The notes beneath the pieces are model-generated. The model ran no database searches, had not been told where the DNA came from, and saw only the letters and a program-made list of their open reading frames with translations. Below, in pieces: positions 2,337-49,847 of a stretch of DNA of 64,000 nt. A program made the position numbers and the translations under genes. Source of the stretch: Escherichia coli (lineage in GTDB: Bacteria > Pseudomonadota > Gammaproteobacteria > Enterobacterales > Enterobacteriaceae); NCBI RefSeq assembly GCF_051903065.1, contig NZ_CP178438.1. The stretch is one strand, 5' to 3'. The first letter of the stretch is position 1, and every line of letters starts with the position of its first letter.

Positions 2337-2371
2337 GGTGAAAAAAATGCCGGATGCGACGCTGGTGAACA

Positions 2372-3273
<902 letters not shown>

Positions 3274-3825
3274 TCCAGGAGATGCTCCTGCATGGCTTTC
3301 AGATATGCATTTTCTGCGCGAAGATAACGCAGCTCATTCTTCATCTCTTCCGGCGTCATGTTTGCCTCGTTTTCATGGGTATCATCAGAACGGGTCATGC
3401 TTTTCTCCTTCCTGCGCCTGATAAAGGCCTCATTACCAGATTTGCGGTAGCCTTTTATCCAGTTTTTAACCATGTTGTGGCTGGGAATGTTAAACCGGGC
3501 AGCTACCCGGGGTAGAGACTCAGAATGCCCGAGAGCATAAAGAACCACGCAAAGTTTATCTTCAGGAGAATAGCTACGCTTGTGTCTGCAATCCAGTGCC
3601 TGAGGACCGTGAAGAAGAAAAAGATTAATCCAGTGTGAGAGGCTGGTGTGAGAAAGTTGAAAGAGTTTTGCCGTAGAAATGATGCCTGCATGACCGGCCA
3701 GGTAATGATTTACAGCGGCAAGTTTTACTTCAAATGAATGTTTCATAAACTGCACCTTCAGATGTCAGATTATGTCCAACATTTGGGGTGCAGTTCATGG
3801 CGCGTCTTATCCAGCCTACTCTTGC

Positions 3826-6978: not shown

Positions 6979-7011
6979 CATAAAGCCCGTGAATATTCAC
7001 GGGCTTTTTTT
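6979..7011 (+). terminator. Rho-independent terminator after dsbA
   Basis: Hairpin gcccgtgaatattcacgggc followed by a T-run. Confidence 0.6.
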
Positions 7012-7118: not shown

Positions 7119-7379
7119 ATGATACGTAAGTCAGCTACAGGTGTTATTGTTGCGTTAGCCGTAATCTGGGGTGGTGGCACATGGTACACAGGTACGCAAA
7201 TTCAGCCTGGTGTCGAAAAATTTATTAAAGATTTTAACGATGCTAAAAAGAAAGGTGAACATGCCTACGATATGACGTTAAGTTATAAAAACTTTGACAA
7301 AGGCTTTTTTAATTCCCATTTTCAAATGCAAATTTCATTTGATAACGGTGCACCCGATCTCAATATCAAGCCAGGCCAG
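7119..7379 (+). pseudogene. yihF: yihF 5' fragment (DUF945 protein), interrupted by IS1
   Basis: The frame MIRKSATGVIVALAVIWGGGTWYTG... runs directly into the IS1 terminal repeat; the remainder of the frame resumes after the IS. Confidence 0.8.
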
Positions 7380-7394
7380 GGTAATGACTCCAAC

Positions 7395-7898
7395 TTATTG
7401 ATAGTGTTTTATGTTCAGATAATGCCCGATGACTTTGTCATGCAGCTCCACCGATTTTGAGAACGACAGCGACTTCCGTCCCAGCCGTGCCAGGTGCTGC
7501 CTCAGATTCAGGTTATGCCGCTCAATTCGCTGCGTATATCGCTTGCTGATTACGTGCAGCTTTCCCTTCAGGCGGGATTCATACAGCGGCCAGCCATCCG
7601 TCATCCATATCACCACGTCAAAGGGTGACAGCAGGCTCATAAGACGCCCCAGCGTCGCCATAGTGCGTTCACCGAATACGTGCGCAACAACCGTCTTCCG
7701 GAGCCTGTCATACGCGTAAAACAGCCAGCGCTGGCGCGATTTAGCCCCGACATAGCCCCACTGTTCGTCCATTTCCGCGCAGACGATGACGTCACTGCCC
7801 GGCTGTATGCGCGAGGTTACCGACTGCGGCCTGAGTTTTTTAAGTGACGTAAAATCGTGTTGAGGCCAACGCCCATAATGCGGGCTGTTGCCCGGCAT
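7395..7898 (-). CDS. insB: IS1 InsB (made as an InsAB' fusion by frameshift)
   Basis: 167-aa ORF overlapping insA in the -1 frame, as is typical for IS1. Confidence 0.9.
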
Positions 7899-8092
7899 CC
7901 AACGCCATTCATGGCCATATCAATGATTTTCTGGTGCGTACCGGGTTGAGAAGCGGTGTAAGTGAACTGCAGTTGCCATGTTTTACGGCAGTGAGAGCAG
8001 AGATAGCGCTGATGTCCGGCGGTGCTTTTGCCGTTACGCACCACCCCGTCAGTAGCTGAACAGGAGGGACAGCTGATAGAAACAGAAGCCAC
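7817..8092 (-). CDS. insA: IS1 InsA
   Basis: 91-aa protein [23 protein letters not shown]... with a zinc-finger-like N-terminus. Confidence 0.9.
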
Positions 8093-8147
8093 TGGAGCAC
8101 CTCAAAAACACCATCATACACTAAATCAGTAAGTTGGCAGCATCACC

Positions 8148-9326
8148 CCAGGCCAGAAAGTTGTATTTGATGTGGATGTTGAGCACGGTCCGTTGCCCAT
8201 CACAATGTTAATGCATGGTAATGTCATCCCAGCACTGGCAGCGGCAAAAGTGAACTTAGTGAATAATGAACTGACACAACCGCTATTTATCGCCGCGAAA
8301 AATAAATCGCCCGTGGAAGCGACATTGCGATTCGCGTTTGGTGGCTCATTCTCTACGACATTAGATGTTGCCCCTGCAGAGTATGGAAAGTTTTCTTTTG
8401 GTGAGGGCCAGTTTACTTTTAATGGTGATGGTAGTTCATTGTCTAACCTGGATATTGAAGTCAAAGTCGAAGATATTGTTCTGCAATTATCACCAATGAA
8501 CAAAGTAACGGCAAAAAGTTTTACCATTGATTCTCTGACACGATTAGAAGAAAAGAAATTTCCGGTTGGTGAAAGCGAGTCGAAATTTAATCAGGTTAAT
8601 ATTATCAATCAGGGGGAAGACGTTGCCCAAATCGATGCTTTCGTTGCAAAAACCAGGCTGGATCGCGTTAAAGACAAAGATTATATCAATGTCAATCTGA
8701 CCTACGAACTTGATAAGTTAACAAAAGGGAATCAGCAACTCGGTAGTGGTGAGTGGTCATTGATTGCTGAATCTATTGATCCCTCAGCAGTGCGCCAATT
8801 TATCATCCAGTATAACATTGCGATGCAGAAGCAGCTTGCTGCACACCCTGAGTTAGCAAACGATGAAGTTGCTCTGCAAGAAGTGAATGCTGCATTGTTC
8901 AAAGAGTATTTACCGTTATTACAACAAAGTGAGCCGACCATTAAACAACCGGTAAGATGGAAGAACGCACTCGGCGAACTAAATGCCAATCTGGATATCA
9001 GTATTGCCGACCCAGCCAAATCTTCATCATCCACAAACAAAGATATTAAATCGCTCAATTTTGATGTGAAGATACCGCTTAATGTCGCCACAGAAATCGC
9101 AAAACAGCTTAATTTATCTGAAGGAATGGATGCGGAAAAAGCGCAAAAGCAGGCTGATAAACAAATCAGCGGGATGATGACATTAGGTCAGATGTTTCAG
9201 TTAATCACGATTGACAACAATACCGCCTCGCTGCAACTGCGTTATACACCGGGTAAAGTTGTTTTTAACGGACAGGAGATGAGCGAAGAAGAATTTATGT
9301 CTCGTGCCGGACGTTTTGTTCATTAA
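8148..9326 (+). pseudogene. yihF: yihF 3' fragment (DUF945 protein)
   Basis: The frame restarts in phase at the duplicated CCAGGCCAG; the two fragments minus the duplicated codons reconstitute about 476 aa. Confidence 0.8.
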
Positions 9327-9366
9327 AATACTCACTCGCCTCTGCTCATTCAGAGGCGAGCAAAAT

Positions 9367-10323
9367 TTACTTGTCCTGCCGCTGTGATGACATCAACGAC
9401 GTCAGAAGCCGGTCTTTTTCCTGCCACAGTGAGTTCAGCCATTGCTGAAAATGGCGCTTAAAGCTTTTGTCATTGATGTAGTCGCCATGTAACTCATCGG
9501 CAACAGGCTGCAAATCCACATGTACGACAATCCGCGTCAGTTTACCGCTTAACATATCGAAGAACGGCTGACGGTTATTGTCCGGATAACACAGCGTAAC
9601 ATTAAGCAGTTTATCGAATTGTTTACCCAGTACATTTAGCGCCATCGCAATGCCTGCCGCCTTTGGTGGCAACAAGTTTTGAAAAGTGGAGTGGGTTTGC
9701 TGATGTTTTTCTTGCGTGAAACGGGAGCCTTCAACGAAATTGACAATGGTGGTGGGATGCAGGCGAAACTTTTCACAAGAACGCCGAGTGGTTTCAACAT
9801 CTTTACCACGTCGCTCCGGATGACGTAATAAATAAGCGCGGGAATAACGCTTCATAAACGGCATATCCAGCGCCCAGCACGCCAGGCCAAGAAATGGCAC
9901 CCAGGCCAGCTGTTGCTTGAGGAAATATTTATTCATCGGAATGTGCTTACGAAACAGCACGCACAGTACGACAATATCTGCCCAACTACGGTGGTTACAA
10001 ATAAGCAGATACCAGTTCTTCTTACTTAACCCTTCCAGCCCGTGAACTTCCCATTGCAGGTGTGGGTTCAGATGCAGTAATACCGCCAGACCTTCACACC
10101 AGCAATACATCATAAAATCACAAAAACGCGAAACCTTTCGCCAAATGACTGGCACAGGTAGCAATAGTTTTACAATCCCGGCAATGATGATCGGGACGGA
10201 ACAAAAAATAGTGACCAAAATGGTCAATACGATACTCAGCAAAAGGGTTATCGCAGCGAGTATTCTCGTCATAATGAATTTATTCAAAAGGTTAGCCATA
10301 GACAGTGCGCTAAAGAAGCGCAA
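9367..10323 (-). CDS. yihG: Putative PlsC-family acyltransferase YihG
   Basis: 318-aa ORF with N-terminal membrane segments and the acyltransferase HxxxxD motif (NHRSWAD); K-12 position between yihF and polA. Confidence 0.85.
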
Positions 10324-10379
10324 GGCGCAGATTTTAGCAGAAAACGACCCAAATAACGGATGATCCTTAAGGAGAAAAA

Positions 10380-10545
10380 TAATTCATATCTATCCACATT
10401 AGAAAAAATCCCATTATCTCAATTATTAGGGATGGCTTTATTTTTAACTGCATGAAAAACAAAGACAAACATCATGCTGTAAAAAGCATGATAATAAATT
10501 AAAAGCGATGTAAATAATTTATGCACAAAGTTATCCACATGACGA
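10380..10545 (+). promoter_or_regulatory. polA upstream region with DnaA-box-like sequences
   Basis: TTATCCACA-type 9-mers (tatccacat, gttatccacatg) upstream of polA; the functional assignment rests on memory of the polA promoter. Confidence 0.35.
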
Positions 10546-10662
10546 TTTGCGAGCGATCCAGAAGATCTACAAAAGATTTTCACGAAAAGCGGTGAAAAAC
10601 TCATGTTTTTATCCTGTCTGTGGCATCCTTTACCCATAATCTGATAAACAGGCACGGACATT

Positions 10663-13449
10663 ATGGTTCAGATCCCCCAAAATCCACTTATCCTTGTAGA
10701 TGGTTCATCTTATCTTTATCGCGCATATCACGCGTTTCCTCCGCTGACTAACAGCGCAGGCGAGCCGACCGGTGCGATGTATGGTGTCCTCAACATGCTG
10801 CGCAGTCTGATCATGCAATATAAACCGACGCATGCAGCGGTGGTCTTTGACGCCAAGGGAAAAACCTTTCGTGATGAACTGTTTGAACATTACAAATCAC
10901 ATCGCCCGCCAATGCCGGACGATCTGCGTGCACAAATCGAACCCTTGCACGCGATGGTTAAAGCGATGGGACTGCCGCTGCTGGCGGTTTCTGGCGTAGA
11001 AGCGGACGACGTTATCGGTACTCTGGCGCGCGAAGCCGAAAAAGCCGGGCGTCCGGTGCTGATCAGCACTGGCGATAAAGATATGGCGCAGCTGGTGACG
11101 CCAAATATTACGCTTATCAATACCATGACGAATACCATCCTCGGACCGGAAGAGGTGATGAATAAGTACGGCGTGCCGCCAGAACTGATCATCGATTTCC
11201 TGGCGCTGATGGGTGACTCCTCTGATAACATTCCTGGCGTACCGGGCGTCGGTGAAAAAACCGCGCAGGCATTGCTGCAAGGTCTTGGCGGGCTGGATAC
11301 GCTGTATGCCGAGCCAGAAAAAATTGCTGGGTTGAGCTTCCGTGGCGCGAAAACAATGGCAGCGAAGCTCGAGCAAAACAAAGAAGTTGCTTATCTCTCA
11401 TACCAGCTGGCGACGATTAAAACCGACGTTGAACTGGAGCTGACCTGTGAACAACTGGAAGTGCAGCAACCGGCAGCGGAAGAGTTGTTGGGGCTGTTCA
11501 AAAAGTATGAGTTCAAACGCTGGACTGCTGATGTCGAAGCGGGCAAATGGTTACAGGCCAAAGGGGCAAAACCCGCCGCGAAGCCACAGGAAACCAGTGT
11601 TGCAGACGAAGCTCCAGAAGTGACGGCAACGGTGATTTCTTATGACAACTACGTCACCATCCTTGATGAAGAAACACTGAAAGCGTGGATTGCGAAGCTG
11701 GAAAAAGCGCCGGTATTTGCATTTGATACCGAAACCGACAGCCTTGATAACATCTCTGCTAACCTGGTCGGGCTTTCTTTTGCTATCGAGCCAGGCGTAG
11801 CGGCATATATTCCGGTTGCTCATGATTATCTTGATGCGCCCGATCAAATCTCTCGCGAGCGTGCACTCGAGTTGCTAAAACCGCTGCTGGAAGATGAAAA
11901 GGCGCTGAAGGTCGGGCAAAACCTGAAATACGATCGCGGTATTCTGGCGAATTACGGCATTGAGCTGCGTGGGATTGCGTTTGATACCATGCTGGAGTCC
12001 TACATTCTCAATAGCGTTGCCGGGCGTCACGATATGGACAGCCTCGCGGAACGTTGGTTGAAGCACAAAACCATCACTTTTGAAGAGATTGCGGGTAAAG
12101 GCAAAAATCAACTGACCTTTAACCAGATTGCCCTCGAAGAGGCCGGACGTTACGCCGCCGAAGATGCGGATGTCACCTTGCAGTTGCATCTGAAAATGTG
12201 GCCAGATCTGCAAAAACACAAAGGGCCGTTGAACGTCTTCGAGAATATCGAAATGCCGCTGGTGCCGGTGCTTTCACGCATTGAACGTAACGGTGTGAAG
12301 ATCGATCCGAAAGTGCTGCACAATCATTCTGAAGAGCTTACCTTGCGTCTGGCTGAGCTGGAAAAGAAAGCGCATGAAATTGCAGGTGAGGAATTTAACC
12401 TTTCTTCCACCAAGCAGTTACAAACCATTCTGTTTGAAAAACAGGGCATTAAACCACTGAAGAAAACGCCGGGTGGCGCGCCGTCAACGTCGGAAGAGGT
12501 ACTGGAAGAACTGGCGCTGGACTATCCGTTGCCAAAAGTGATTCTGGAGTATCGTGGTCTGGCGAAGCTGAAGTCGACTTACACCGACAAGCTGCCGCTG
12601 ATGATCAACCCGAAAACCGGGCGTGTGCATACCTCTTATCACCAGGCAGTAACTGCAACGGGACGTTTATCGTCAACCGATCCTAACCTGCAAAACATTC
12701 CGGTGCGTAACGAAGAAGGTCGTCGTATCCGCCAGGCGTTTATTGCGCCAGAGGATTATGTGATTGTCTCAGCGGACTACTCGCAGATTGAACTGCGCAT
12801 TATGGCGCATCTCTCGCGTGACAAAGGCTTGCTGACCGCATTCGCGGAAGGAAAAGATATCCACCGGGCAACGGCGGCAGAAGTGTTTGGTTTGCCACTG
12901 GAAACCGTCACCAGCGAGCAACGCCGTAGCGCGAAAGCGATCAACTTTGGTCTGATTTATGGCATGAGTGCTTTCGGTCTGGCGCGGCAATTGAACATTC
13001 CACGTAAAGAAGCGCAGAAGTACATGGACCTTTACTTCGAACGCTACCCTGGCGTGCTGGAGTATATGGAACGCACCCGTGCTCAGGCGAAAGAGCAGGG
13101 CTACGTTGAAACGCTGGACGGACGCCGTCTGTATCTGCCGGATATCAAATCCAGCAATGGTGCTCGTCGTGCAGCGGCTGAACGTGCAGCCATTAACGCG
13201 CCAATGCAGGGAACCGCCGCCGACATTATCAAACGGGCGATGATTGCCGTTGATGCGTGGTTACAGGCTGAGCAACCGCGTGTACGTATGATCATGCAGG
13301 TACACGATGAACTGGTATTTGAAGTCCATAAAGATGATGTCGATGCCGTCGCGAAGCAGATTCATCAACTGATGGAAAACTGTACCCGTCTGGATGTGCC
13401 GTTGCTGGTGGAAGTGGGGAGTGGCGAAAACTGGGATCAGGCGCACTAA
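10663..13449 (+). CDS. polA: DNA polymerase I
   Basis: 928-aa ORF with 5'-3' exonuclease, 3'-5' exonuclease and polymerase motifs ([23 protein letters not shown]). Confidence 0.97.
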
Positions 13450-13596
13450 GATTCGCCTGAACATGCCCTTTTTTCGTAAGTAAGCAACATAAGCTGTCAC
13501 GTTTTGTGATGGCTATTAGAAATTCCTATGCAACAACTGAAAAAAAATTACAAAAAGTGCTTTCTGAACTGAACAAAAAAGAGTAAAGTTAGTCGC

Positions 13597-13705
13597 GTAG
13601 GGTACAGAGGTAAGATGTTCTATCTTTCAGACCTTTTACTTCACGTAATCGGATTTGGCTGAATATTTTAGCCGCCCCAGTCAGTAATGACTGGGGCGTT
13701 TTTTA
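13597..13705 (+). ncRNA. spf: Spot 42 small RNA
   Basis: Sequence gtagggtacagaggtaagatgttctatctttcagacc...gccccagtcagtaatgactggggcgtttttta matches Spot 42; canonical position between polA and engB. Confidence 0.9.
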
Positions 13706-13728
13706 TTGGGCGAAAGAAAAAATCCGCA

Positions 13729-13820
13729 ATGCCTGATGCGCCATGTTTATCAGGCCAACGGTAGAATTGTAATCTATTGAATTTACGGGCCGGATACGCC
13801 ACATCCGGCACAAGCATTAA
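13729..13820. repeat. REP (repetitive extragenic palindromic) elements
   Basis: gcctgatgcgccatgtttatcaggcc ... gggccggatacgccacatccggcac palindromic units. Confidence 0.6.
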
Positions 13821-13830
13821 GGCAAGAAAA

Positions 13831-14463
13831 TTATTCGCCGTCCTGCGTTTCTTCTACAGGCTGCATCTCGCTAAACCAGGTATCCAGTTTCTGCCGCAGC
13901 TTGTCCACGCCTTGTTTCTTCAACGAAGAAAACGTTTCAACCTGCACATCACCGTTAAACGCCAGTACAGCTTCACGCACCATATTCAATTGCGCTTTAC
14001 GTGCGCCGCTTGCCAGTTTGTCCGCTTTGGTCAGCAACACCAGCACGGCGATATTGCTGTCTACCGCCCACTCAATCATCTGCTGATCCAAATCTTTCAG
14101 CGGATGGCGAATATCCATTAGCACTACCAGACCTTGTAGGCTCTGACGTTTTTCGAGGTACTCGCCGAGCGCGCGCTGCCATTTGCGCTTCATCTCTTCC
14201 GGGACTTCCGCATAACCGTACCCAGGCAAGTCAACCAGACGCTTGCCGTCAGCCACTTCAAACAGGTTGATAAGCTGGGTGCGTCCTGGGGTTTTTGAGG
14301 TACGAGCCAGGCTTTTCTGGTTAGTCAGCGTGTTCAGCGCGCTGGATTTACCTGCGTTGGAACGGCCTGCAAAAGCCACTTCAATTCCGGTATCGGAAGG
14401 TAGGTGGCGAATATCAGGCGCACTCATCACAAAATGCGTCTGTTGATAATTCAAATTAGTCAA
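13831..14463 (-). CDS. engB: Ribosome biogenesis GTPase EngB (YihA)
   Basis: 210-aa ORF with G1 motif GRSNAGKSS and G4 motif TKADK. Confidence 0.92.
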
Positions 14464-14733
14464 AGCGGTCGTCTCCGTCAGTCAAAGCTTTGTGGCGATT
14501 ATACCTGAACCATAATAAAAGGCGGATTTTTCGGCGTGAGCGTTGTAAGTAAAAGCCATACGCTTTGTGAGACATTGCCGATAGTCTTTATGCGAAATAG
14601 CAGAGAAAATTCTGCGATGCATGTCAAATAAGCTATATAAATCAGTGAATTGCTTTTATATAAAACTCTGAAAATGTGCAAATACTGATGGCGGTTGATT
14701 GTTTGTTTAAAGCAAAGGCGTAAAGTAACACCC

Positions 14734-14978
14734 ATAGAGCGAGGACGCTAACAGGAACAATGACTCAGGATGAGGGTCAGGAGCGCCAGGAGGCGAAGAC
14801 AGAGGATTGTCAGGAAGACAAACGTCCGGAGACGTAATTAAACGGAAATGGAATCAACACGGATTGTTCCGGCTAATGGAAAAACAGGGTGTGTTGGCGG
14901 CCTGCAAGGATTGTAAGACCCGTTAAGGGTTATGAGTCAGGAAAAAAGGCGACAGAGTAATCTGTCGCCTTTTTTCTT
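14734..14978 (+). ncRNA. csrC: CsrC small RNA (CsrA-sequestering)
   Basis: About 245 nt with many GGA motifs (caggatgagg, caggagcg, caggaagac, ccggagacg, tcaggaaa...) ending in the terminator ggcgacagagtaatctgtcgccttttttc; canonical position between engB and yihI. Confidence 0.85.
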
Positions 14979-15044
14979 TGCTTGCTTTCTGTTAGATTCC
15001 GCCGCAAATCTATACTGAATAAAACGGCTAAAAGACGAACCATT

Positions 15045-15551
15045 ATGAAACCATCTTCACCATCACGCAGCAAAGGTCATGCAAAAGCGCGTCGCAAAAC
15101 GCGCGAAGAGCTGAATCAGGAAGCTCGTGACCGCAAGCGTCAGAAAAAACGTCGTGGTCATGCGCCGGGCAGCCGCGCAGCGGGCGGTAACACCACGTCA
15201 GGCAGCAAAGGCCAGAACGCACCAAAAGATCCACGTATTGGCAGTAAAACCCCTATTCCATTGGGCGTGACTGAAAAAGTCACCAAACAGCACAAACCGA
15301 AGAGTGAGAAACCTATGCTTTCACCGCAGGCGGAGTTGGAATTACTGGAAACGGATGAGCGTCTGGATGCGCTGCTGGAACGTCTGGAAGCAGGCGAAAC
15401 CCTGAGTGCCGAAGAGCAATCCTGGGTGGATGCTAAACTGGATCGTATTGATGAGTTGATGCAGAAACTCGGCCTCTCTTATGACGATGACGAAGAAGAG
15501 GAAGAAGACGAGAAGCAAGAAGACATGATGCGTCTGCTGCGGGGCAACTAA
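15045..15551 (+). CDS. yihI: Der GTPase-activating protein YihI
   Basis: Basic N-terminus [22 protein letters not shown]... and acidic C-terminus; start chosen at an internal ATG. Confidence 0.88.
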
Positions 15552-15739
15552 CGGATTGCCGCCGTGGGCCTTCCCGTTCTGCTGATAACCCTTCCGGTTA
15601 TATGTTATCTGGTGTGGTTATTCGTTAAACTACAGCGGTTGTCGCGGCGACAAAAGTGGCTGCGCAACCGGCTGATGACCCGAAACGGGCATCCGCCGGT
15701 ACGCCGTAGCCGCCAGAGACGCCATCGGAAGGAGTGAGC

Positions 15740-17113
15740 ATGTCTGTACAGCAAATCGACTGGGATCTGGCCCTGATCCAGAAATATAACTATTCCGGGC
15801 CACGATACACCTCGTACCCGACCGCGCTGGAGTTTTCAGAAGACTTCGGCGAACAGGCGTTTTTACAAGCCGTGGCGCGCTATCCTGAGCGTCCATTATC
15901 TCTCTACGTACATATCCCGTTCTGCCATAAGCTTTGTTACTTCTGCGGCTGCAATAAGATTGTTACTCGCCAGCAGCACAAGGCCGATCAGTATCTGGAC
16001 GCGCTGGAGCAAGAAATCGTCCATCGTGCACCGCTGTTCGCCGGGCGTCACGTCAGCCAATTGCACTGGGGCGGCGGAACGCCGACGTATCTTAATAAAG
16101 CGCAAATCAGCCGCCTGATGAAGCTGCTGCACGAAAACTTCCAGTTCAATGCCGATGCGGAGATTTCGATCGAAGTCGATCCGCGGGAAATCGAACTGGA
16201 TGTACTCGATCATTTACGCGCCGAAGGCTTTAATCGCCTGAGCATGGGCGTGCAGGACTTCAACAAAGAAGTGCAACGTCTGGTTAACCGCGAGCAGGAT
16301 GAAGAGTTTATCTTTGCACTGCTTAACCATGCGCGTGAGATTGGTTTTACCTCCACCAACATCGACCTGATTTACGGCCTGCCGAAACAGACGCCGGAAA
16401 GTTTCGCCTTTACCCTGAAACGTGTGGCGGAGCTGAACCCCGATCGTCTGAGCGTCTTTAACTACGCGCATTTGCCGACCATTTTTGCTGCTCAGCGCAA
16501 AATCAAAGATGCTGACCTGCCGAGTCCGCAGCAAAAACTCGATATCCTGCAGGAAACCATCGCCTTCCTGACGCAATCGGGCTATCAGTTTATCGGTATG
16601 GATCACTTTGCCCGTCCTGATGACGAGCTGGCGGTGGCCCAGCGTGAAGGCGTGCTGCATCGTAACTTCCAGGGCTACACCACTCAGGGCGATACCGATC
16701 TGCTGGGGATGGGCGTTTCCGCCATCAGCATGATTGGCGACTGCTACGCGCAGAACCAGAAAGAGTTGAAACAGTACTATCAGCAAGTGGATGAACAAGG
16801 CAATGCGCTGTGGCGTGGTATTGCGCTAACGCGTGATGACTGTATTCGCCGCGATGTGATTAAGTCGCTCATCTGCAACTTCCGTCTGGATTACGCCCCT
16901 ATTGAGAAACAGTGGGATTTGCACTTCGCTGATTACTTTGCGGAAGATCTCAAGCTGCTCGCCCCGTTAGCAAAAGATGGGCTGGTGGATGTGGATGAGA
17001 AGGGGATTCAGGTGACGGCGAAAGGTCGCTTGCTGATCCGCAACATTTGCATGTGCTTTGATACCTATCTGCGCCAGAAAGCGCGGATGCAGCAGTTCTC
17101 TCGGGTGATTTAA
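15740..17113 (+). CDS. hemN: Oxygen-independent coproporphyrinogen III oxidase (radical SAM)
   Basis: CxxxCxxC radical-SAM motif (HIPFCHKLCYFCGCN); about 457 aa. Confidence 0.93.
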   Translation: MSVQQIDWDLALIQKYNYSGPRYTSYPTALEFSEDFGEQAFLQAVARYPERPLSLYVHIPFCHKLCYFCGCNKIVTRQQHKADQYLDALEQEIVHRAPLFAGRHVSQLHWGGGTPTYLNKAQISRLMKLLHENFQFNADAEISIEVDPREIELDVLDHLRAEGFNRLSMGVQDFNKEVQRLVNREQDEEFIFALLNHAREIGFTSTNIDLIYGLPKQTPESFAFTLKRVAELNPDRLSVFNYAHLPTIFAAQRKIKDADLPSPQQKLDILQETIAFLTQSGYQFIGMDHFARPDDELAVAQREGVLHRNFQGYTTQGDTDLLGMGVSAISMIGDCYAQNQKELKQYYQQVDEQGNALWRGIALTRDDCIRRDVIKSLICNFRLDYAPIEKQWDLHFADYFAEDLKLLAPLAKDGLVDVDEKGIQVTAKGRLLIRNICMCFDTYLRQKARMQQFSRVI

Positions 17114-17164
17114 ATAGTGAATGGCGCTTCGTTTACAAAGTAGAAAACGAAAGCGCCATCAATG

Positions 17165-17275
17165 TGCTGAGAACAAGATTGCCTGATGCGCTACGCTTAT
17201 CAGGCCTACAAAACCTGTTGAAAATATTGCTTTTGTAGGCCGGATAAGGCGTTCACGCCGCATCCGGCATGAACA
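17165..17275. repeat. REP elements
   Basis: Palindromic gcctgatgcgctacgcttatcaggcctac ... gtaggccggataaggcgttcacgccgcatccggca units. Confidence 0.55.
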
Positions 17276-17302
17276 AAGAGCACTTCATCAGCAATCTGAA
17301 AC

Positions 17303-17413
17303 TCAACTAAACAGCCCAATCATCGCGGCACACAGCACGGCAGCAACAGCAGTTTGCGGTGTGTGGCTGTCAACTGCGCCACTCGATACCAGATTAATTA
17401 TTGATTCCAGCAT
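17303..17413 (-). CDS. yshB: Small membrane protein YshB (36 aa)
   Basis: Minus-strand ORF MLESIINLVSSGAVDSHTPQTAVAAVLCAAMIGLFS found by manual translation; known small-protein locus between hemN and glnG. Confidence 0.6.
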   Translation of the reverse strand: MLESIINLVSSGAVDSHTPQTAVAAVLCAAMIGLFS

Positions 17414-17524
17414 AATGACTCTCCCCGTTTTCCGGGCAAGATCATACTGAACTTATCGGAACAGTAAAGCGCAAAATACCAGCAATTTGCGCTCAATAAT
17501 CAATCTTTACACACAAGCCGTGAA

Positions 17525-18934
17525 TCACTCCATCCCCAGCTCTTTTAACTTACGCGTCAGGGTGTTACGGCCCCAGCCAAGTAGCCGCGCCGCTTCCTGT
17601 TTATGCCCCTGCGTATGTCGCAACGCGGTCGTCAGTAACGTCCGCTCCAGCTCTGGCTGCGCTTCGGAAAGCAGATTTTGATGACCGGAACGCAGCGCTC
17701 TGTCTGCCCACTGCGCAAGAAGCGTCGCCCAACTGTCCGGTTGCATTTGCGAAGTACTCTCCGCAACCGTTGATTCAAACAGTTCGCCGGGCAAATCCTG
17801 AATCAACACTTCCTGCCCGGCGGCCATCACCGTTAGCCAGCGGCAGGTGTTTTCCAGCTGGCGCACGTTGCCTGGCCACGCCAGACGCGTCAGAGCAGCT
17901 TCGGTTTCCGGATGCAGCAACTTCGCTTCTACGCCCAGTTCGCGCGCGGCAACCTGTAAAAAATGGCGCGCCAGACGGGGAATATCTTCCCGACGCTCAC
18001 GCAGCGGCGGCAGATGAACGCGGATAACGTTCAGGCGGTGGAACAGATCCTCACGGAACTTACCTTCCTGCACCCGCTGTTCGAGATTCTGGTGAGTGGC
18101 AGCGATAATCCGCACATCCACTTTCACCGGCGCATAGCCGCCAACGCGGTAAAACTGGCCGTCTGCCAGCACGCGCAGCAAACGCGTCTGCACATCCAGC
18201 GGCATATCGCCAATTTCATCGAGAAATAATGTACCGCCATCAGCCTGTTCAAAACGCCCCTGACGAATGGTATTCGCGCCGGTAAACGCGCCTTTCTCGT
18301 GACCAAACAGTTCTGATTCGATCAAATCCTTCGGGATAGCCGCCATATTCAGAGCGATAAATGGCGCTTTGGCTCGCGGACTGTGGCGATGCAGGGCATG
18401 AGCGACCAGTTCTTTACCGGTGCCGGATTCGCCGTTAATCAGCACGCTAATAGAAGAACGCGAAAGCCGACCGATAATACGGAACACGTCCTGCATGGCT
18501 GGCGCTTCGCCGATGATATCGGTCGTTGGGCCGTTAAGCTGAACATTACGCGGCTGCTGCTGTTCCTGGTAATGACTGATGGCGCGCTCAACCAGCGCCA
18601 CGGCTTCGTCGATATCAAACGGTTTGGGCAGATAATCAAACGCCCCTTGTTGATAGGCGCTGACGGCAGCATCCAGATCGGAATGTGCGGTCATAATGAT
18701 GACCGGAAGCATCGGATGGCGCTGTTTAATCTGCTTGAGCAGTGCCAGCCCGTCCATTCCCGGCATACGGATATCTGAAAGCAGCACATCCGGCGTTTTG
18801 CTCGCCAGCGCCTCCAGTACCTCCGCGCCGTTCTCAAATGTCGTACAGGTTAAACCCGCTCCAGCGAGCGCACGTTCAAGCACCCAACGGATGGAACTAT
18901 CGTCATCGACTACCCAGACTATCCCTCGTTGCAT
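17525..18934 (-). CDS. glnG: Nitrogen regulation response regulator NtrC (sigma-54 activator)
   Basis: Receiver domain, AAA+ domain ([14 protein letters not shown]) and C-terminal HTH; start at [12 protein letters not shown]. Confidence 0.95.
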
Positions 18935-18945
18935 AAACGTCACCT

Positions 18946-19995
18946 TTATTTCCTGATAGGCAGGTAAACCGAGAACTCGGTATGCCCTGGCCAACTGGTA
19001 AATTCAATTTTGCCTGAATGCTGATCAATCAAATTACGAGCGATGGATAAGCCAAGCCCGGTGCCACCTTCGCGGCCGCTGACCATCGGGTAAAACAGCG
19101 TATCCTGCAAATGAGGCGGAATGCCTGGCCCGTTATCTTCCACATCAATCCGCGCCGCCAGCCGATAGCGTTCGCCGTGTAAGGTCAGTTGAAACGCGGT
19201 ACGGGTACGCAGAATGATTTCACCGCCTTCCGGCCCCAGCGCCTGTAGCGCATTGCGCACAATATTCAGCAAGACCTGTTCAATTTGATCCGGGTCGTGC
19301 GCCAGTTCTGGCAGGCTGGGGTCGTAATCACGAATCAACCGCACGTTGTCCGGCAGTTCCATCGACACCAGCGTCACCACGCGTTCAGCTACTTTGTGAA
19401 TACTTTCGGTCACGCGCGTACCGGGCAGCTGCGGCCCCAACAGACGGTCGACCAGATTTCGCAGCCGGTCCGCCTGTTCGATAATCACTTTGGTATATTC
19501 CAGCAGTGACGGGTCAGGTAATGCTTTGCTGAGTAGCTGCGCCGCGCCACGTAAACCGCCAAGCGGATTTTTAATCTCATGTGCCAGGCCACGCACTAAA
19601 TCACGGGCAGCAACTTGTTGAGCATGTTGTAGCTGTTCCTGGCTTAAGCGGCGCTGGTTATCCATCGGCGCCATCTCCAGCAGGATCATGCCGTCCGGCA
19701 TACGCTGGGCCGTCACAGAAAGGATATGCGAGCGCCCGTCGATGACCAGCGTCACTTCGTTATCGGTAAAACCTTGCCCCGCCTCCAGACTTTCTTGCAT
19801 CAGCTCGATATTTAATGAGAAGTAGCTCAACAGTTCCGGTAACGGTGTACCAAACAATTTGCGGGAGCTTTGGGCGAGCAGTTGTTGCGCGGCGGGGTTG
19901 GCGTAATGGATCGCCAGGTTGTCATCGATTAACAAAATACTGTTAATCAGCGAGTTGAGGATCTGCCCAGCATCGGGCTGCGTGCCTGTTGCCAT
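18946..19995 (-). CDS. glnL: Nitrogen regulation sensor histidine kinase NtrB
   Basis: 349-aa ORF with H-box HEIKNPL and ATP-binding motifs; upstream of glnG. Confidence 0.95.
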
Positions 19996-20168
19996 AAAGC
20001 AGTCTCCTGAACAGGTTGCACCATTTTAGTGCATTATAGCTTTTTACGGATAAAAAGCGCGAAGCATCAGAGAATTGACGGAGAAAAAAGCCCATGCAGA
20101 GATGGGCTGAAAGTTTCCACGGCAACTAAATCCCGGCGTTGTTGCGCCGGGTAGTACAACTTCAACTA

Positions 20169-21578
20169 TTAGACGCTGTAGTACAGCTCAAACTCTACCG
20201 GATGCGGAGTCATACGCACGCGGTCATCTTCTTCGCGACGCAGAGCGATGTACGCATCGATCGCTTCATCCGTGAACACGCCACCGGCTTTCAGGAACTC
20301 GCGGTCCAGATCCAGCTCGTTCAGTGCTTCTTCCAGAGAGCCTGCAACTTGTGGGATCTCTTTCGCTTCTTCTGGCGGCAGGTCATACAGGTTTTTGTCC
20401 ATGGCTTCGCCCGGATGGATCTTGTTCTTGATACCATCAAGACCGGCCATCAGCAGGGCAGCAAAGCACAGGTACGGGTTAGCCGCCGGATCCGGGAAAC
20501 GTACTTCGATACGACGCGCTTTCGGAGAAGAAACCACTGGAATACGGATAGAAGCAGAACGGTTACGTGCAGAGTAAGCCAGCATTACCGGTGCTTCGTA
20601 GCCCGGGACCAGACGCTTATAAGAGTTGGTGGTCGGGTTTGCCAGGGCGTTAATCGCTTTCGCGTGTTTGATTACGCCGCCAATGTAGTACAGCGCCTGC
20701 TCAGACAGACCAGCGTATTTGTCGCCCGCGAACAGGTTAACGCCGTTTTTAGACAGAGACATGTGGCAGTGCATACCGGAGCCGTTATCACCGAACATCG
20801 GTTTTGGCATAAAGGTCGCGGTTTTACCGAAGCGGTGCGCTACGTTGTGCACAACATATTTGTAGATCTGAATTTCGTCAGCTTTTTTGGTCATGGTATT
20901 GAAGCGGGTAGCCACTTCGTTCTGACCAGCAGTTGCTACTTCGTGGTGATGGGCTTCAACCACCAGACCCATCTGTTCCATCACCAGACACATTTCAGAA
21001 CGAATATCCTGAGCCGAGTCTACCGGCGGAACCGGGAAGTAACCGCCTTTAACTGCCGGACGGTGACCTTTGTTACCACCTTCATATTGGGTGGAGGAGT
21101 TCCATGCGCCTTCGATATCGTCGATAGCAACATGAGAACCGGAGATAGATGATCCGAAACGGATATCATCGAACAGGAAGAATTCAGGTTCTGGCCCGAA
21201 CAGTACGGTGTCGGCAATGCCAGTAGAACGCAGGTAATCTTCAGCGCGCTTCGCGATGGAGCGCGGGTCACGGTCATAGCCTTGCAGGGTGCCAGGTTCA
21301 AGGATGTCGCAACGGATAATCAGGGTGGAGTCGGCGAAGAACGGGTCAATCACTGCGGTGGATGCGTCTGGCATCAGCACCATGTCGGACTCGTTAATGC
21401 CTTTCCAGCCGCCAATCGAGGAGCCGTCAAACATTTTGCCTTCTTCGAAGAATTCGGCATTCACCTGATGAGCAGGGATAGTGACGTGCTGTTCTTTACC
21501 TTTGGTATCGGTGAAGCGCAAATCAACAAACTTCACTTCGTGCTCGTTCAGCATCGTCAGTACGTGTTCAGCGGACAT
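20169..21578 (-). CDS. glnA: Glutamine synthetase
   Basis: 469-aa ORF starting [24 protein letters not shown] with the adenylylation-site region. Confidence 0.97.
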
Positions 21579-21656
21579 ACTTTAACTCTCCTGGATTGGT
21601 CATTGTCGTCGTGGTAACGAAATCTGCAATTATTTTGGCCGTGTCGCCGTAAAAAA

Positions 21657-21679
21657 GATAAAGCGAAAACTGTGCCAAC
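21657..21679 (-). promoter_or_regulatory. glnAp2 sigma-54 promoter (-24/-12 element)
   Basis: The minus strand reads GTTGGCACAGTTTTCGCTTTATC (TGGCAC-N5-TTCGCT), about 80 nt upstream of the glnA ATG. Confidence 0.7.
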
Positions 21680-21729
21680 TTTTAAATTGCCCCTAAAAGG
21701 CGTTATCATGCTTAACATCGTGCAAAAGG

Positions 21730-21800
21730 GCTGCACCATGATGTGAATGTTGCACCAATATAGTGCTTCAATGGAAACATTAAGCACCATATTGGTGCAA
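21730..21800 (-). promoter_or_regulatory. NtrC enhancer-binding sites upstream of glnA
   Basis: Dyads of the TGCACC...GGTGCA type (gcaccatattggtgca, ttgcaccaatatagtgc, tgcaccatgatgtg). Confidence 0.55.
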
Positions 21801-21950
21801 TGACCTTTGGATAACCCTTTTTATGCTCCGTGAAAGCGATCACAAAGGGACTCTGCAATACTTGTTTGCGGAGGATGTTTGTGATCCTGTTTTGTAGTGC
21901 GATTAATCCGTGTACAATAACGCGCTATTTCTAATGCCTGAGGCAAAGTT

Positions 21951-23774
21951 GTGATCGAAAAATTGCGTAATATCGCCATCATCGCGCACGTAGACCATGG
22001 TAAAACCACCCTGGTAGACAAGCTGCTCCAACAATCCGGTACGTTCGACTCTCGTGCCGAAACCCAAGAGCGCGTGATGGACTCCAACGATTTGGAGAAA
22101 GAGCGTGGGATTACCATCCTCGCGAAAAACACCGCTATCAAATGGAATGATTACCGTATCAACATCGTTGATACCCCGGGGCACGCCGACTTCGGTGGTG
22201 AAGTTGAACGTGTAATGTCCATGGTAGACTCAGTGCTGCTGGTGGTTGACGCATTTGACGGCCCGATGCCGCAAACGCGCTTCGTAACCAAAAAAGCGTT
22301 TGCTTACGGCCTGAAGCCGATTGTTGTTATCAACAAAGTTGACCGCCCTGGCGCGCGTCCTGATTGGGTTGTGGATCAGGTATTCGATCTGTTCGTTAAC
22401 CTCGACGCGACCGACGAGCAGCTGGACTTCCCGATCGTTTACGCTTCTGCGCTGAACGGTATCGCGGGTCTGGACCACGAAGATATGGCGGAAGACATGA
22501 CCCCGCTGTATCAGGCGATTGTTGATCACGTTCCTGCGCCGGACGTTGACCTTGACGGTCCGTTCCAGATGCAGATTTCTCAGCTCGATTACAACAGCTA
22601 TGTTGGCGTTATCGGCATTGGCCGCATCAAGCGCGGTAAAGTGAAGCCGAACCAGCAGGTCACTATCATCGATAGCGAAGGCAAAACCCGCAACGCGAAA
22701 GTCGGTAAAGTGCTGGGCCACCTCGGTCTGGAACGTATCGAAACCGATCTGGCGGAAGCTGGCGATATCGTGGCGATCACGGGCCTGGGCGAACTGAACA
22801 TTTCTGACACCGTTTGCGACACGCAAAACGTTGAAGCGCTGCCGGCACTCTCCGTTGATGAGCCGACCGTTTCTATGTTCTTCTGCGTTAACACCTCGCC
22901 GTTCTGCGGTAAAGAAGGTAAGTTCGTAACGTCTCGTCAGATCCTGGATCGTCTGAACAAAGAACTGGTACACAACGTTGCGCTGCGCGTAGAAGAAACC
23001 GAAGACGCTGATGCGTTCCGCGTTTCTGGTCGTGGCGAACTGCACCTGTCTGTTCTGATCGAAAACATGCGTCGTGAAGGTTTCGAACTGGCGGTATCCC
23101 GTCCGAAAGTTATCTTCCGTGAAATCGACGGTCGTAAACAAGAGCCGTATGAAAACGTGACTCTGGACGTTGAAGAACAGCATCAGGGTTCTGTAATGCA
23201 GGCGCTGGGCGAACGTAAAGGCGACCTGAAAAACATGAATCCAGACGGTAAAGGCCGCGTACGTCTCGACTACGTGATCCCAAGCCGTGGTCTGATTGGC
23301 TTCCGTTCTGAGTTCATGACCATGACTTCCGGTACTGGTCTGCTGTACTCCACCTTCAGCCACTACGACGACGTACGTCCGGGCGAAGTGGGTCAGCGTC
23401 AGAACGGTGTACTGATCTCTAACGGTCAGGGTAAAGCGGTCGCGTTCGCGCTGTTCGGTCTGCAGGATCGCGGTAAGCTGTTCCTCGGTCACGGTGCAGA
23501 AGTTTACGAAGGTCAGATTATCGGTATTCATAGCCGCTCTAACGACCTGACTGTAAACTGCCTGACCGGTAAGAAACTGACCAACATGCGTGCTTCCGGT
23601 ACTGACGAAGCCGTTGTTCTGGTTCCGCCTATCCGCATGACTCTGGAACAAGCTCTGGAGTTCATCGATGATGACGAACTGGTAGAAGTGACTCCGACCT
23701 CTATCCGTATTCGTAAACGTCACCTGACGGAAAACGATCGTCGCCGCGCCAACCGCGCACCGAAAGACGATTAA
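21951..23774 (+). CDS. typA: Ribosome-associated translational GTPase BipA/TypA
   Basis: 607-aa ORF with G-domain motifs [18 protein letters not shown]. Confidence 0.95.
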
Positions 23775-23792
23775 TTTCGTTTTTTAGTTATA

Positions 23793-23823
23793 AAAAACCT
23801 GCCATCGCTGGCAGGTTTTTTTT
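23793..23823 (+). terminator. Rho-independent terminator after typA
   Basis: Hairpin aacctgccatcgctggcaggtt followed by a T-run. Confidence 0.6.
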
Positions 23824-23990
23824 TACCTGTCGTGAGCGCACACCAATGCGAGTATCTCCCTTATAAGTCTGTGATTACGTCAATAGAGAGCTTTGTCACA
23901 ATTATCTGCAAAGTCATACGCCGTTAATTGCTTTCTTTTTTGGCGTAAGCGTAAGATGCTTCATCTGGTTTAAACCAAAAGGATTAAACA

Positions 23991-24701
23991 ATGGCGGAGA
24001 ATCAATCCACCGTAGAAAATGCAAAAGAGAAACTGGATCGGTGGTTGAAAGATGGCATCACCACGCCGGGTGGAAAACTCCCTTCAGAAAGAGAGCTGGG
24101 AGAACTGCTGGGCATTAAACGTATGACGCTGCGCCAGGCGTTGTTGAACCTCGAGGCAGAATCCAAAATCTTCCGTAAAGATCGTAAGGGGTGGTTCGTG
24201 ACCCAGCCGCGATTTAATTACAGTCCGGAGCTGTCGGCGAGCTTTCAGCGGGCCGCAATTGAGCAAGGGCGGGAACCTTCCTGGGGGTTTACCGAGAAAA
24301 ACCGTACCAGCGATATTCCCGAGACGCTCGCGCCACTGATTGCAGTGACACCATCAACTGAACTCTATCGCATCACCGGCTGGGGGGCGCTGGAAGGACA
24401 TAAAGTTTTCTATCACGAAACATATATTAATCCTGAAGTTGCTCCGGGTTTTATTGAACAACTTGAAAACCACTCATTTTCTGCAGTCTGGGAAAAGTGC
24501 TACCAAAAAGAGACGGTAGTAAAAAAATTGATTTTCAAACCCGTCAGAATGCCGGGCGATATCAGCAAGTATCTTGGCGGTTCTGCGGGTATGCCAGCGA
24601 TCTTAATTGAAAAGCATCGCGCCGACCAGCAAGGCAATATTGTCCAGATAGATATTGAATATTGGCGATTTGAGGCCGTAGACCTCATCATTAATCTGTA
24701 G
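23991..24701 (+). CDS. yihL: GntR-family transcriptional regulator YihL
   Basis: 236-aa ORF with an N-terminal winged-HTH signature (PSERELGELLGIKRMTLRQAL). Confidence 0.85.
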   Translation: MAENQSTVENAKEKLDRWLKDGITTPGGKLPSERELGELLGIKRMTLRQALLNLEAESKIFRKDRKGWFVTQPRFNYSPELSASFQRAAIEQGREPSWGFTEKNRTSDIPETLAPLIAVTPSTELYRITGWGALEGHKVFYHETYINPEVAPGFIEQLENHSFSAVWEKCYQKETVVKKLIFKPVRMPGDISKYLGGSAGMPAILIEKHRADQQGNIVQIDIEYWRFEAVDLIINL

Positions 24702-24844
24702 GTGTTTTATGGTGACAATAAATAACGCAAGAAAGATTCTACAACGTGTCGACACTCTTCCTCTTTATTTACATGCTTATGCCTTTCATGGTGATGCTGC
24801 CAACTTACTGATTTAGTGTATGATGGTGTTTTTGAGGTGCTCCA

Positions 24845-25120
24845 GTGGCTTCTGTTTCTATCAGCTGTCCCTCCTGTTCAGCTACTGACGGGGTGGTGCG
24901 TAACGGCAAAAGCACCGCCGGACATCAGCGCTATCTCTGCTCTCACTGCCGTAAAACATGGCAACTGCAGTTCACTTACACCGCTTCTCAACCCGGTACG
25001 CACCAGAAAATCATTGATATGGCCATGAATGGCGTTGGATGCCGGGCAACAGCCCGCATTATGGGCGTTGGCCTCAACACGATTTTACGTCACTTAAAAA
25101 ACTCAGGCCGCAGTCGGTAA
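24845..25120 (+). CDS. insA: IS1 InsA
   Basis: Protein identical to the other IS1 copy; GTG start. Confidence 0.9.
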
Positions 25121-25542
25121 CCTCGCGCATACAGCCGGGCAGTGACGTCATCGTCTGCGCGGAAATGGACGAACAGTGGGGCTATGTCGGGGCTAAATCG
25201 CGCCAGCGCTGGCTGTTTTACGCGTATGACAGGCTCCGGAAGACGGTTGTTGCGCACGTATTCGGTGAACGCACTATGGCGACGCTGGGGCGTCTTATGA
25301 GCCTGCTGTCACCCTTTGACGTGGTGATATGGATGACGGATGGCTGGCCGCTGTATGAATCCCGCCTGAAGGGAAAGCTGCACGTAATCAGCAAGCGATA
25401 TACGCAGCGAATTGAGCGGCATAACCTGAATCTGAGGCAGCACCTGGCACGGCTGGGACGGAAGTCGCTGTCGTTCTCAAAATCGGTGGAGCTGCATGAC
25501 AAAGTCATCGGGCATTATCTGAACATAAAACACTATCAATAA
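25039..25542 (+). CDS. insB: IS1 InsB
   Basis: Protein identical to the other IS1 copy. Confidence 0.9.
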
Positions 25543-25556
25543 GTTGGAGTCATTAC

Positions 25557-25988
25557 CCAGATCGTATAGGTCAAAAAAGTCTGTATTTGTCGGGAGCAGG
25601 ATTTTGTGTCCTGTTCGCGTTTCCTTTCTTCTTATTACTGGATAGCAAAAGTACGCTCATCATCTGGTGCAGTATGATCCTCGGCTACAACTTAGGTCCG
25701 ACGATGATGTTTGCCGTGCAGCCAACACTTTTCACCCGCATGTTCGGTACCAAAGTACGATATACCGGCCTTTCTTTTGCTTATCAATTTTCCGCGATTC
25801 TTGGCGGACTAAGCCCCCTTATCGCCTCAAGTTTGCTGGCGCTAGGGGGAGGAAAACCGTGGTATGTCGCTCTGTTTTTATTTGCTGTCTCAGTTCTTTC
25901 CTTTGTTTGCGTCTGGCTGATTGAGCCGACCGATGAACAAGAAACCGCTTCTTACCGCTACATCAGGGAACAATCTCATGAAAACTGA
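25557..25988 (+). pseudogene. 3' fragment of an MFS-type transporter gene, 5'-truncated at the IS1 junction
   Basis: The reading frame is open from the first base after IS1 and encodes only the last ~4 hydrophobic helices (…FCVLFAFPFFLLLD…LGGLSPLIASSLLALGG…YVALFLFAVSVLSFVCVWLIEP…); there is no upstream start or N-terminal half. Confidence 0.6.
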
Positions 25989-49431: not shown

Positions 49432-49847
49432 GTCGGATGCACGACCCGTAGGCCGGATAAGGCGCTCGTGCCGCATCCGGCAATCAATGCCTGATGCGAC
49501 GCTGTCGCGTCTTATCAGGCCTACAACTATTGCCGACCTGTAGGCCGGATAAGGCACTTGTGCCGCATCCGGCAATCAATGCCTGATGCGACGCTGTCGC
49601 GTCTTATCAGACCTACAACTATTGCCGACCTGTAGGCCGGATAAGGCGCTCGTGCCGCATCCGGCAATCAATGCCTGATGCGACGCTGTCGCGTCTTATC
49701 AGGCCTACAACTATTGCCGACCTGTAGGCCGGATAAGGCACTTGTGCCGCATCCGGCAATCAATGCCTGATGCGATGTCGCGTCTTATCAGGCCTACAAC
49801 TGTTGCCGACCTGTAGGCCGGATAAGGCACTTGTGCCGCATCCGGCA
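49432..49847. repeat. BIME: tandem array of about 4.5 REP-pair units (~91 bp each) between rhaD and rhaA
   Basis: The unit gcctgatgcgacgctgtcgcgtcttatcaggcctacaactattgccgacctgtaggccggataaggc[gctcg or acttg]tgccgcatccggcaatcaat repeats with minor variants. Confidence 0.88.

Follow-up and report, generated by a model that had tools for sequence, protein, structure and literature searches.

We analysed a stretch of 64,000 nt of Escherichia coli DNA (hereafter the window) in which the gene yihF, a member of the DUF945 (YdgA) family, lies in two pieces on either side of an IS1 element. The question raised by this locus is how the gene came to be split, by a simple transposition event in a recent ancestor or by one of several other routes that could place an IS1 within a gene. 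We find that a recent single simple insertion of an IS1A-type element into yihF, in a recent ancestor of the clone, is the reading to retain, with a probability of about 96 %. It builds on the anatomy of the element, the target duplication, the restoration of the open reading frame, the empty site in relatives and the restricted distribution of the junction, each of which we observe directly. The features that make up the disrupted gene are the following:

7119-7379, plus strand: 5' fragment of yihF, codons 1-87 (translation).
7371-7379, no strand: left copy of the target-site duplication, CCAGGCCAG, 9 bp (sequence and script).
7380-8147, minus strand (sense of the transposase): complete IS1 of the IS1A type, 768 bp (homology and PGAP label).
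8148-8156, no strand: right copy of the target-site duplication, CCAGGCCAG, 9 bp (sequence and script).
8157-9326, plus strand: 3' fragment of yihF, codons 88-476 and the stop codon (translation).

The gene starts with an ATG at 7119 on the plus strand and its stop codon ends at 9326. Joining 7119-7379 to 8157-9326 restores 1431 nt that encode 476 aa with no stop and no frameshift. The rejoined gene differs by 1 nt from that of O145:H28 RM12761, by 2 nt from that of ECNB21-M121 and by 19 nt from that of K-12. Its product matches Pfam PF06097 (DUF945) with E=5.7e-108 over profile positions 3-459 of 460, and the NCBIfam equivalog NF008472 with 1029.7 bits (cut-off 738) over positions 1-476 of 476. 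A sequence-only reading of this DNA had described a complete 768-bp IS1 with a perfect 9-bp duplication at 7371-8156, splitting the DUF945 gene yihF at about codon 87 into fragments that rejoin in frame to about 476 aa. These claims hold in every detail: the interval coincides to the base with the element plus its two repeats, the element has 768 bp and is nearly identical to IS1A of K-12, both copies of the 9-mer are perfect, the split falls after codon 87 and the rejoined protein of 476 aa is a full-length DUF945 match. Separately, we note a nonsynonymous difference at yihF nt 566 (window 8461), in the 3' pseudogene fragment, where Val189 is found here and Gly in both RM12761 and ECNB21-M121.

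During IS1 transposition, staggered cuts are made in the target, the element ends are joined by strand transfer and the gaps are repaired, so that a direct target duplication is the signature of a simple insertion. An intramolecular replicative event of IS1 instead inverts or deletes DNA and leaves the two target copies apart. At yihF the duplicated CCAGGCCAG corresponds to nt 253-261 of the gene, that is codons 85-87 (Pro-Gly-Gln). The 9-mer occurs five times in the window compared to 0.46 expected, and just two of these occurrences abut IS1. With the IS1 ends fixed by homology, identical flanking 9-mers would arise by chance with a probability of 4^-9, or ~4e-6. The length of the repeat is within the 8 or 9 bp described for IS1 target duplications (PMC12428005, PMC5009759).

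The element itself carries the following parts:

7380-7402, no strand: IRR, the right terminal inverted repeat, at the insB' end (18/23 match with IRL).
7395-7898, minus strand: insB' reading frame with the DDE catalytic domain (Pfam PF03400, DDE_Tnp_IS1).
7817-8092, minus strand: insA, 91 aa, repressor and DNA-binding protein with Zn ribbon and HTH (Pfam PF03811, PF12759).
7835-7841, minus strand: A6C motif (AAAAAAC) for a -1 programmed frameshift (motif found in the sequence).
8113-8140, minus strand: predicted promoter-like site CTGCCA-16-TATGAT, overlapping IRL (consensus scan).
8125-8147, no strand: IRL, the left terminal inverted repeat, at the insA/promoter end (18/23 match with IRR).

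In the window the element starts with GGTAATGACTCCAACTTATTGAT and ends with ATCAGTAAGTTGGCAGCATCACC, which are the ends of IS1, and its terminal inverted repeats (GGTGATGCTGCCAACTTACTGAT and GGTAATGACTCCAACTTATTGAT) agree at 18 of 23 positions and are located exactly at these ends. The promoter-like site occupies the position at which the weak insA promoter PIS1 has been described (PMC12428005). The 91-aa InsA matches both Zn_ribbon_InsA and HTH_Tnp_IS1 (PF03811 and PF12759). When a -1 shift is simulated in silico at the A6C motif, where frameshifting is predicted, a 232-aa InsAB' fusion is obtained that scores 245 bits against the NCBIfam transpos_IS1 equivalog (cut-off 100). All family traits of IS1 are thus present, namely the length, the inverted repeats, insA with an overlapping insB', the A6C motif and the 9-bp duplication, and PGAP labels the element in strain 23CRST031 'IS1-like element IS1A family transposase, programmed frameshift'. 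Judged from its sequence, this IS1 copy looks intact and potentially active.

The reading frame of the 5' fragment runs into IS1 and reaches a stop at 7458-7460, giving a 113-aa stub composed of 87 YihF residues and 26 residues encoded by IS1. For the 3' fragment there is no upstream start codon in frame, a stop in that frame being located 8 codons ahead of the right repeat; the N-terminal hydrophobic segment is missing from this fragment. Going by these reading frames, yihF is an insertional pseudogene from which a full-length product would be impossible, and we infer that YihF function is lost. The allele as such is already known: RefSeq annotates an IS1A transposase between two DUF945 pseudogene fragments, labelled in 23CRST031 'DUF945 family protein, incomplete, missing C-terminus' for the 5' piece and 'DUF945 family protein, incomplete, missing N-terminus' for the 3' piece. 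YihF itself appears in the literature only as a hit in screens, for its toxicity on overexpression and as a protein of 'unknown function', and we found no solved structure of a YihF homologue. The inactivated yihF can serve as a marker of this clone in strain typing, and the clone offers a naturally occurring yihF knockout.

K-12 and other genomes share the gene order srkA-dsbA-yihF-yihG-polA, in which yihG is convergent to yihF. Two hairpins delimit the gene:

6982-7007, plus strand: dsbA terminator hairpin upstream of yihF, separating yihF from dsbA (hairpin found in the sequence).
9331-9364, minus strand: terminator hairpin between the convergent yihF and yihG (hairpin found in the sequence).

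Because yihF is a single-gene unit with terminators on both sides and a convergent neighbour, polar effects of IS1 on the neighbouring genes seem unlikely.

To place the insertion in time, we looked at its distribution. Of 5,426 complete E. coli genomes, 2 (23CRST027 and 23CRST031) match the exact yihF::IS1 junction at 100 % in one piece, and none of the other 5,424 carries it. Both strains come from human faeces collected in Santo Domingo, Ecuador; our literature search found no paper on strain 23CRST031. Over 50 kb, the window and 23CRST031 are separated by 2 mismatches and 3 gaps of one base each, and the two strains are essentially the same clone as the window. The closest genome free of the insertion, ECNB21-M121, is 10 SNPs away over ~42 kb, with 2 SNPs in the 4.3 kb left of IS1 and 7 in the 22.5 kb to the right. 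Its yihF is intact, and the empty site is seen there as one copy of CCAGGCCAG at nt 253-261, in a sequence that yihF of K-12 shares. To the left as well as to the right of IS1, the window is collinear with K-12.

The comparison with an IS-free yihF allele, proposed as a check by the sequence-only reading, thus gives the expected intact gene with one copy of the 9-mer. The same reading had called the event a simple transposition, not a rearrangement, which is what we find as well, the flanks being contiguous with intact yihF alleles and the region collinear with both K-12 and the IS-free relative. It had also called the event fairly recent, and we agree, since the element is identical to a second IS1 in the window, the pseudogene is otherwise undamaged, only 2 of 5,426 genomes carry the junction and the site is empty in a relative 10 SNPs away. 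Its description of yihF as a strain-specific pseudogene needs to be amended: the gene is a pseudogene, but the allele is specific to the clone and common to 23CRST027 and 23CRST031, not strictly to one strain.

It is conceivable that the insertion is more than neutral, either through repeatedly favoured loss of YihF or through the position of IRL relative to a nearby NsrR-type site; we consider this improbable and see nothing in the data that positively favours either form. The argument for favoured loss is that yihF has received at least a dozen independent IS1 hits. Beside the one described here, we found at least 11 further independent IS1 sites in yihF in other E. coli genomes, between nt 228-236 and nt 1238-1246, with duplications of 8-9 bp (probably 10 bp in one genome), with the isoforms IS1A, IS1B and IS1X2, and in both orientations. 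The first ~14 insertions retrieved in or near yihF gave the impression of an antisense-only orientation bias, which proved to be an artefact of a search that combines pieces from a single strand. With IS1 flipped in the query, IS1 was found in the opposite orientation at the yihF locus in a further 42 genomes. As side observations at this locus, strain 600029 has an IS1 nested inside another IS1, and F437 and AVS0193 have IS1-associated deletions.

As a control for a hotspot we used yiiG, which is dispensable and has 1056 bp with 44.6 % GC, and kept the chimeric-query geometry identical. Genomes with IS1 at the locus numbered 23 + 42 for yihF compared to 9 + 18 for yiiG, both sets including clonal groups, and the number of independent events per kb differs by less than about two-fold between the two genes. 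The idea that yihF is an IS1 hotspot or a convergently lost gene was dropped on account of this similar control rate. The similar rates fit a preference of IS1 for AT-rich, dispensable DNA and suggest that yihF is not special. AT-rich DNA is preferred by IS1 (PMC5009759), and no other core gene of the window is as AT-rich as yihF, which has 41 % GC compared to 50 % for the window. The 50-bp flanks of the insertion have 36-44 % GC. The AT-rich surroundings in yihF therefore fit the known preference, although the duplicated 9-mer is itself GC-rich (7/9).

The positional form of the argument concerns the following site:

8158-8180, plus strand: intragenic NsrR-type 11-1-11 site (AAGTTGTATTTGATGTGGATGTT), with one mismatch to the site in CFT073 yihF.

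This site begins two bases past the right repeat and 10 bp from the IRL/promoter end of IS1. An NsrR 11-1-11 site inside yihF of CFT073 is supported by ChIP-seq, and intragenic NsrR sites are regarded by the authors of that study as mostly non-functional (PMC5320621). Targeting of IS1 by the NsrR site was rejected, as the other insertions in yihF are spread along the gene and not clustered there. The proximity of the site to IS1 is probably a coincidence. If the position did matter, the expression or the target choice of this IS1 copy could be linked to the nitric-oxide regulator NsrR.

Import of a ready-made yihF::IS1 allele, carried over on a chromosomal segment from another E. coli through homologous recombination, is very unlikely. 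It would draw on the facts that recombination is common in E. coli and that IS1-disrupted yihF alleles are present in many lineages, but the other disrupted alleles examined use different sites (nt 228-236, 565-574, 724-732, 791-799 and further ones). Moreover, the flanks of the insertion are almost identical to those of the IS-free ECNB21-M121, without a divergent imported block, and the junction is restricted to the clone, with 0/5,424 among the other complete genomes.

The second IS1 of the window, at 24790-25557, lies 16.6 kb from the yihF copy in the opposite orientation and is identical to it at 768/768 nt. It comes after nt 81 of yihM and borders on the right the 3' part of a gene for an MFS transporter, an arrangement that points to an IS1-adjacent deletion. 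No target duplication is found at this copy, whose flanks are GCCTTTCAT and CAGATCGTA. Its left junction is common to many E. coli genomes and the right flanks differ, which suggests that deletions extended to one side, in nested fashion, from an IS1 end that stayed fixed. The yihM copy is older than the yihF copy, because ECNB21-M121 and many other genomes already carry it. A bias for local hopping has been reported for IS1 (PMC5009759), and it is plausible that the yihM copy acted as the donor in this manner; with more than 35 places in the genome occupied by IS1, the donor is not assignable to one copy.

The two inverted IS1 copies bracket polA, spf, yihA (engB), csrC, hemN, glnALG, typA and yihL (7380-25557). 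The 16.6-kb segment between them is a potential substrate for inversion by homologous recombination and is not inverted here. Such an inversion, moving a segment with polA, engB (yihA), glnALG and typA, could matter for genome stability in an IS1-rich lineage.

Could an event between these two copies, either recombination or an intramolecular replicative inversion or deletion, have generated the arrangement at yihF? Two 100 % identical inverted copies around 16.6 kb, one of which (yihM) has an adjacent deletion and no target duplication, are the kind of configuration that would permit it. The 9-mer is nonetheless present in direct orientation on both sides of the yihF IS1, where an inversion would leave one per IS1, and neither K-12 nor ECNB21-M121, the latter with the yihM copy only, departs from collinearity across the 16.6 kb. 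We thus regard such an origin as extremely improbable, and an inversion or composite structure between the two copies is ruled out by the collinearity together with the direct duplication.

Repeat-induced misplacement of an IS1 copy during assembly has next to no probability: repeats are a classic source of misassembly and IS1 occupies more than 35 places in this genome, but besides the window, two complete genomes that were assembled independently show the same junctions, and a misassembly would not make a perfect 9-bp target duplication at canonical IS1 ends.

A simple recent insertion is contradicted by none of our results. Following the established knowledge of IS1, from which the chemistry at yihF is inferred, the InsAB' DDE transposase would have been produced by ribosomes shifting frame by -1 at the A6C motif and would have joined both IS1 ends to staggered target cuts 9 bp apart. 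Gap repair would then have duplicated CCAGGCCAG at yihF nt 253-261. Cut after codon 87, the gene would have become a pseudogene consisting of the N-terminal stub and a 3' fragment predicted to be untranslatable, and the neighbouring genes are expected to be unaffected. The sequence is compatible with cut-and-paste transposition, or alternatively with an intermolecular replicative event followed by cointegrate resolution. Insertions of this sort are ordinary and thoroughly known, and the value of this one is that of a clear textbook case of a simple and recent event.

Other mobile or repeated sequences were observed elsewhere in the window. An IS3-family element at ~2366-3797, to which the matching RefSeq genome gives the name IS1397, separates the 5S rRNA gene from mobB and is absent at that position in K-12. 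An open reading frame of 614 aa with 39 % GC is located at 30276-32120 on the plus strand between fabY and yiiE; it has no match in Pfam, NCBIfam or PADLOC, PGAP annotates its 3' half as 'transposase' and its 5' half as a partial hypothetical protein, and the corresponding region of ECNB21-M121 carries ISKpn26. In the rhaA-rhaD spacer (49442-49847), a 92-bp REP/BIME-type unit is repeated in 4.4 tandem copies with 95 % identity, and Rfam naRNA4 matches four units of this array.

How does the yihF insertion compare to known systems? Within the window, it differs from the insertion at yihM, which has an adjacent deletion and no target duplication, whereas the yihF copy is a simple insertion with a 9-bp duplication. 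Among other genomes, yihF is also interrupted by IS1 for example in APEC-O117H42, NT1F31, F829, 2017.06.04CC, MLI104K1, 65COLEC, HUM3355, 203740, cS76a and MS 69-1, in each case at a site other than nt 253-261, and PGAP annotates two DUF945 pseudogene fragments around an IS1 transposase in the other yihF::IS1 genomes, as it does in 23CRST031. With IS1A and IS1E of K-12 (ISfinder type IS1) the element shares the inverted repeats, insA, the A6C motif, insB', the 232-aa InsAB' and the 9-bp duplication. The closest counterpart is IS1A of K-12 MG1655 (19796-20563), which likewise has 768 bp and is identical at 767/768 nt; the two differ in their chromosomal location and at the single nucleotide at window position 7704, which makes residue 130 of InsAB' an Arg here and a Ser in K-12.
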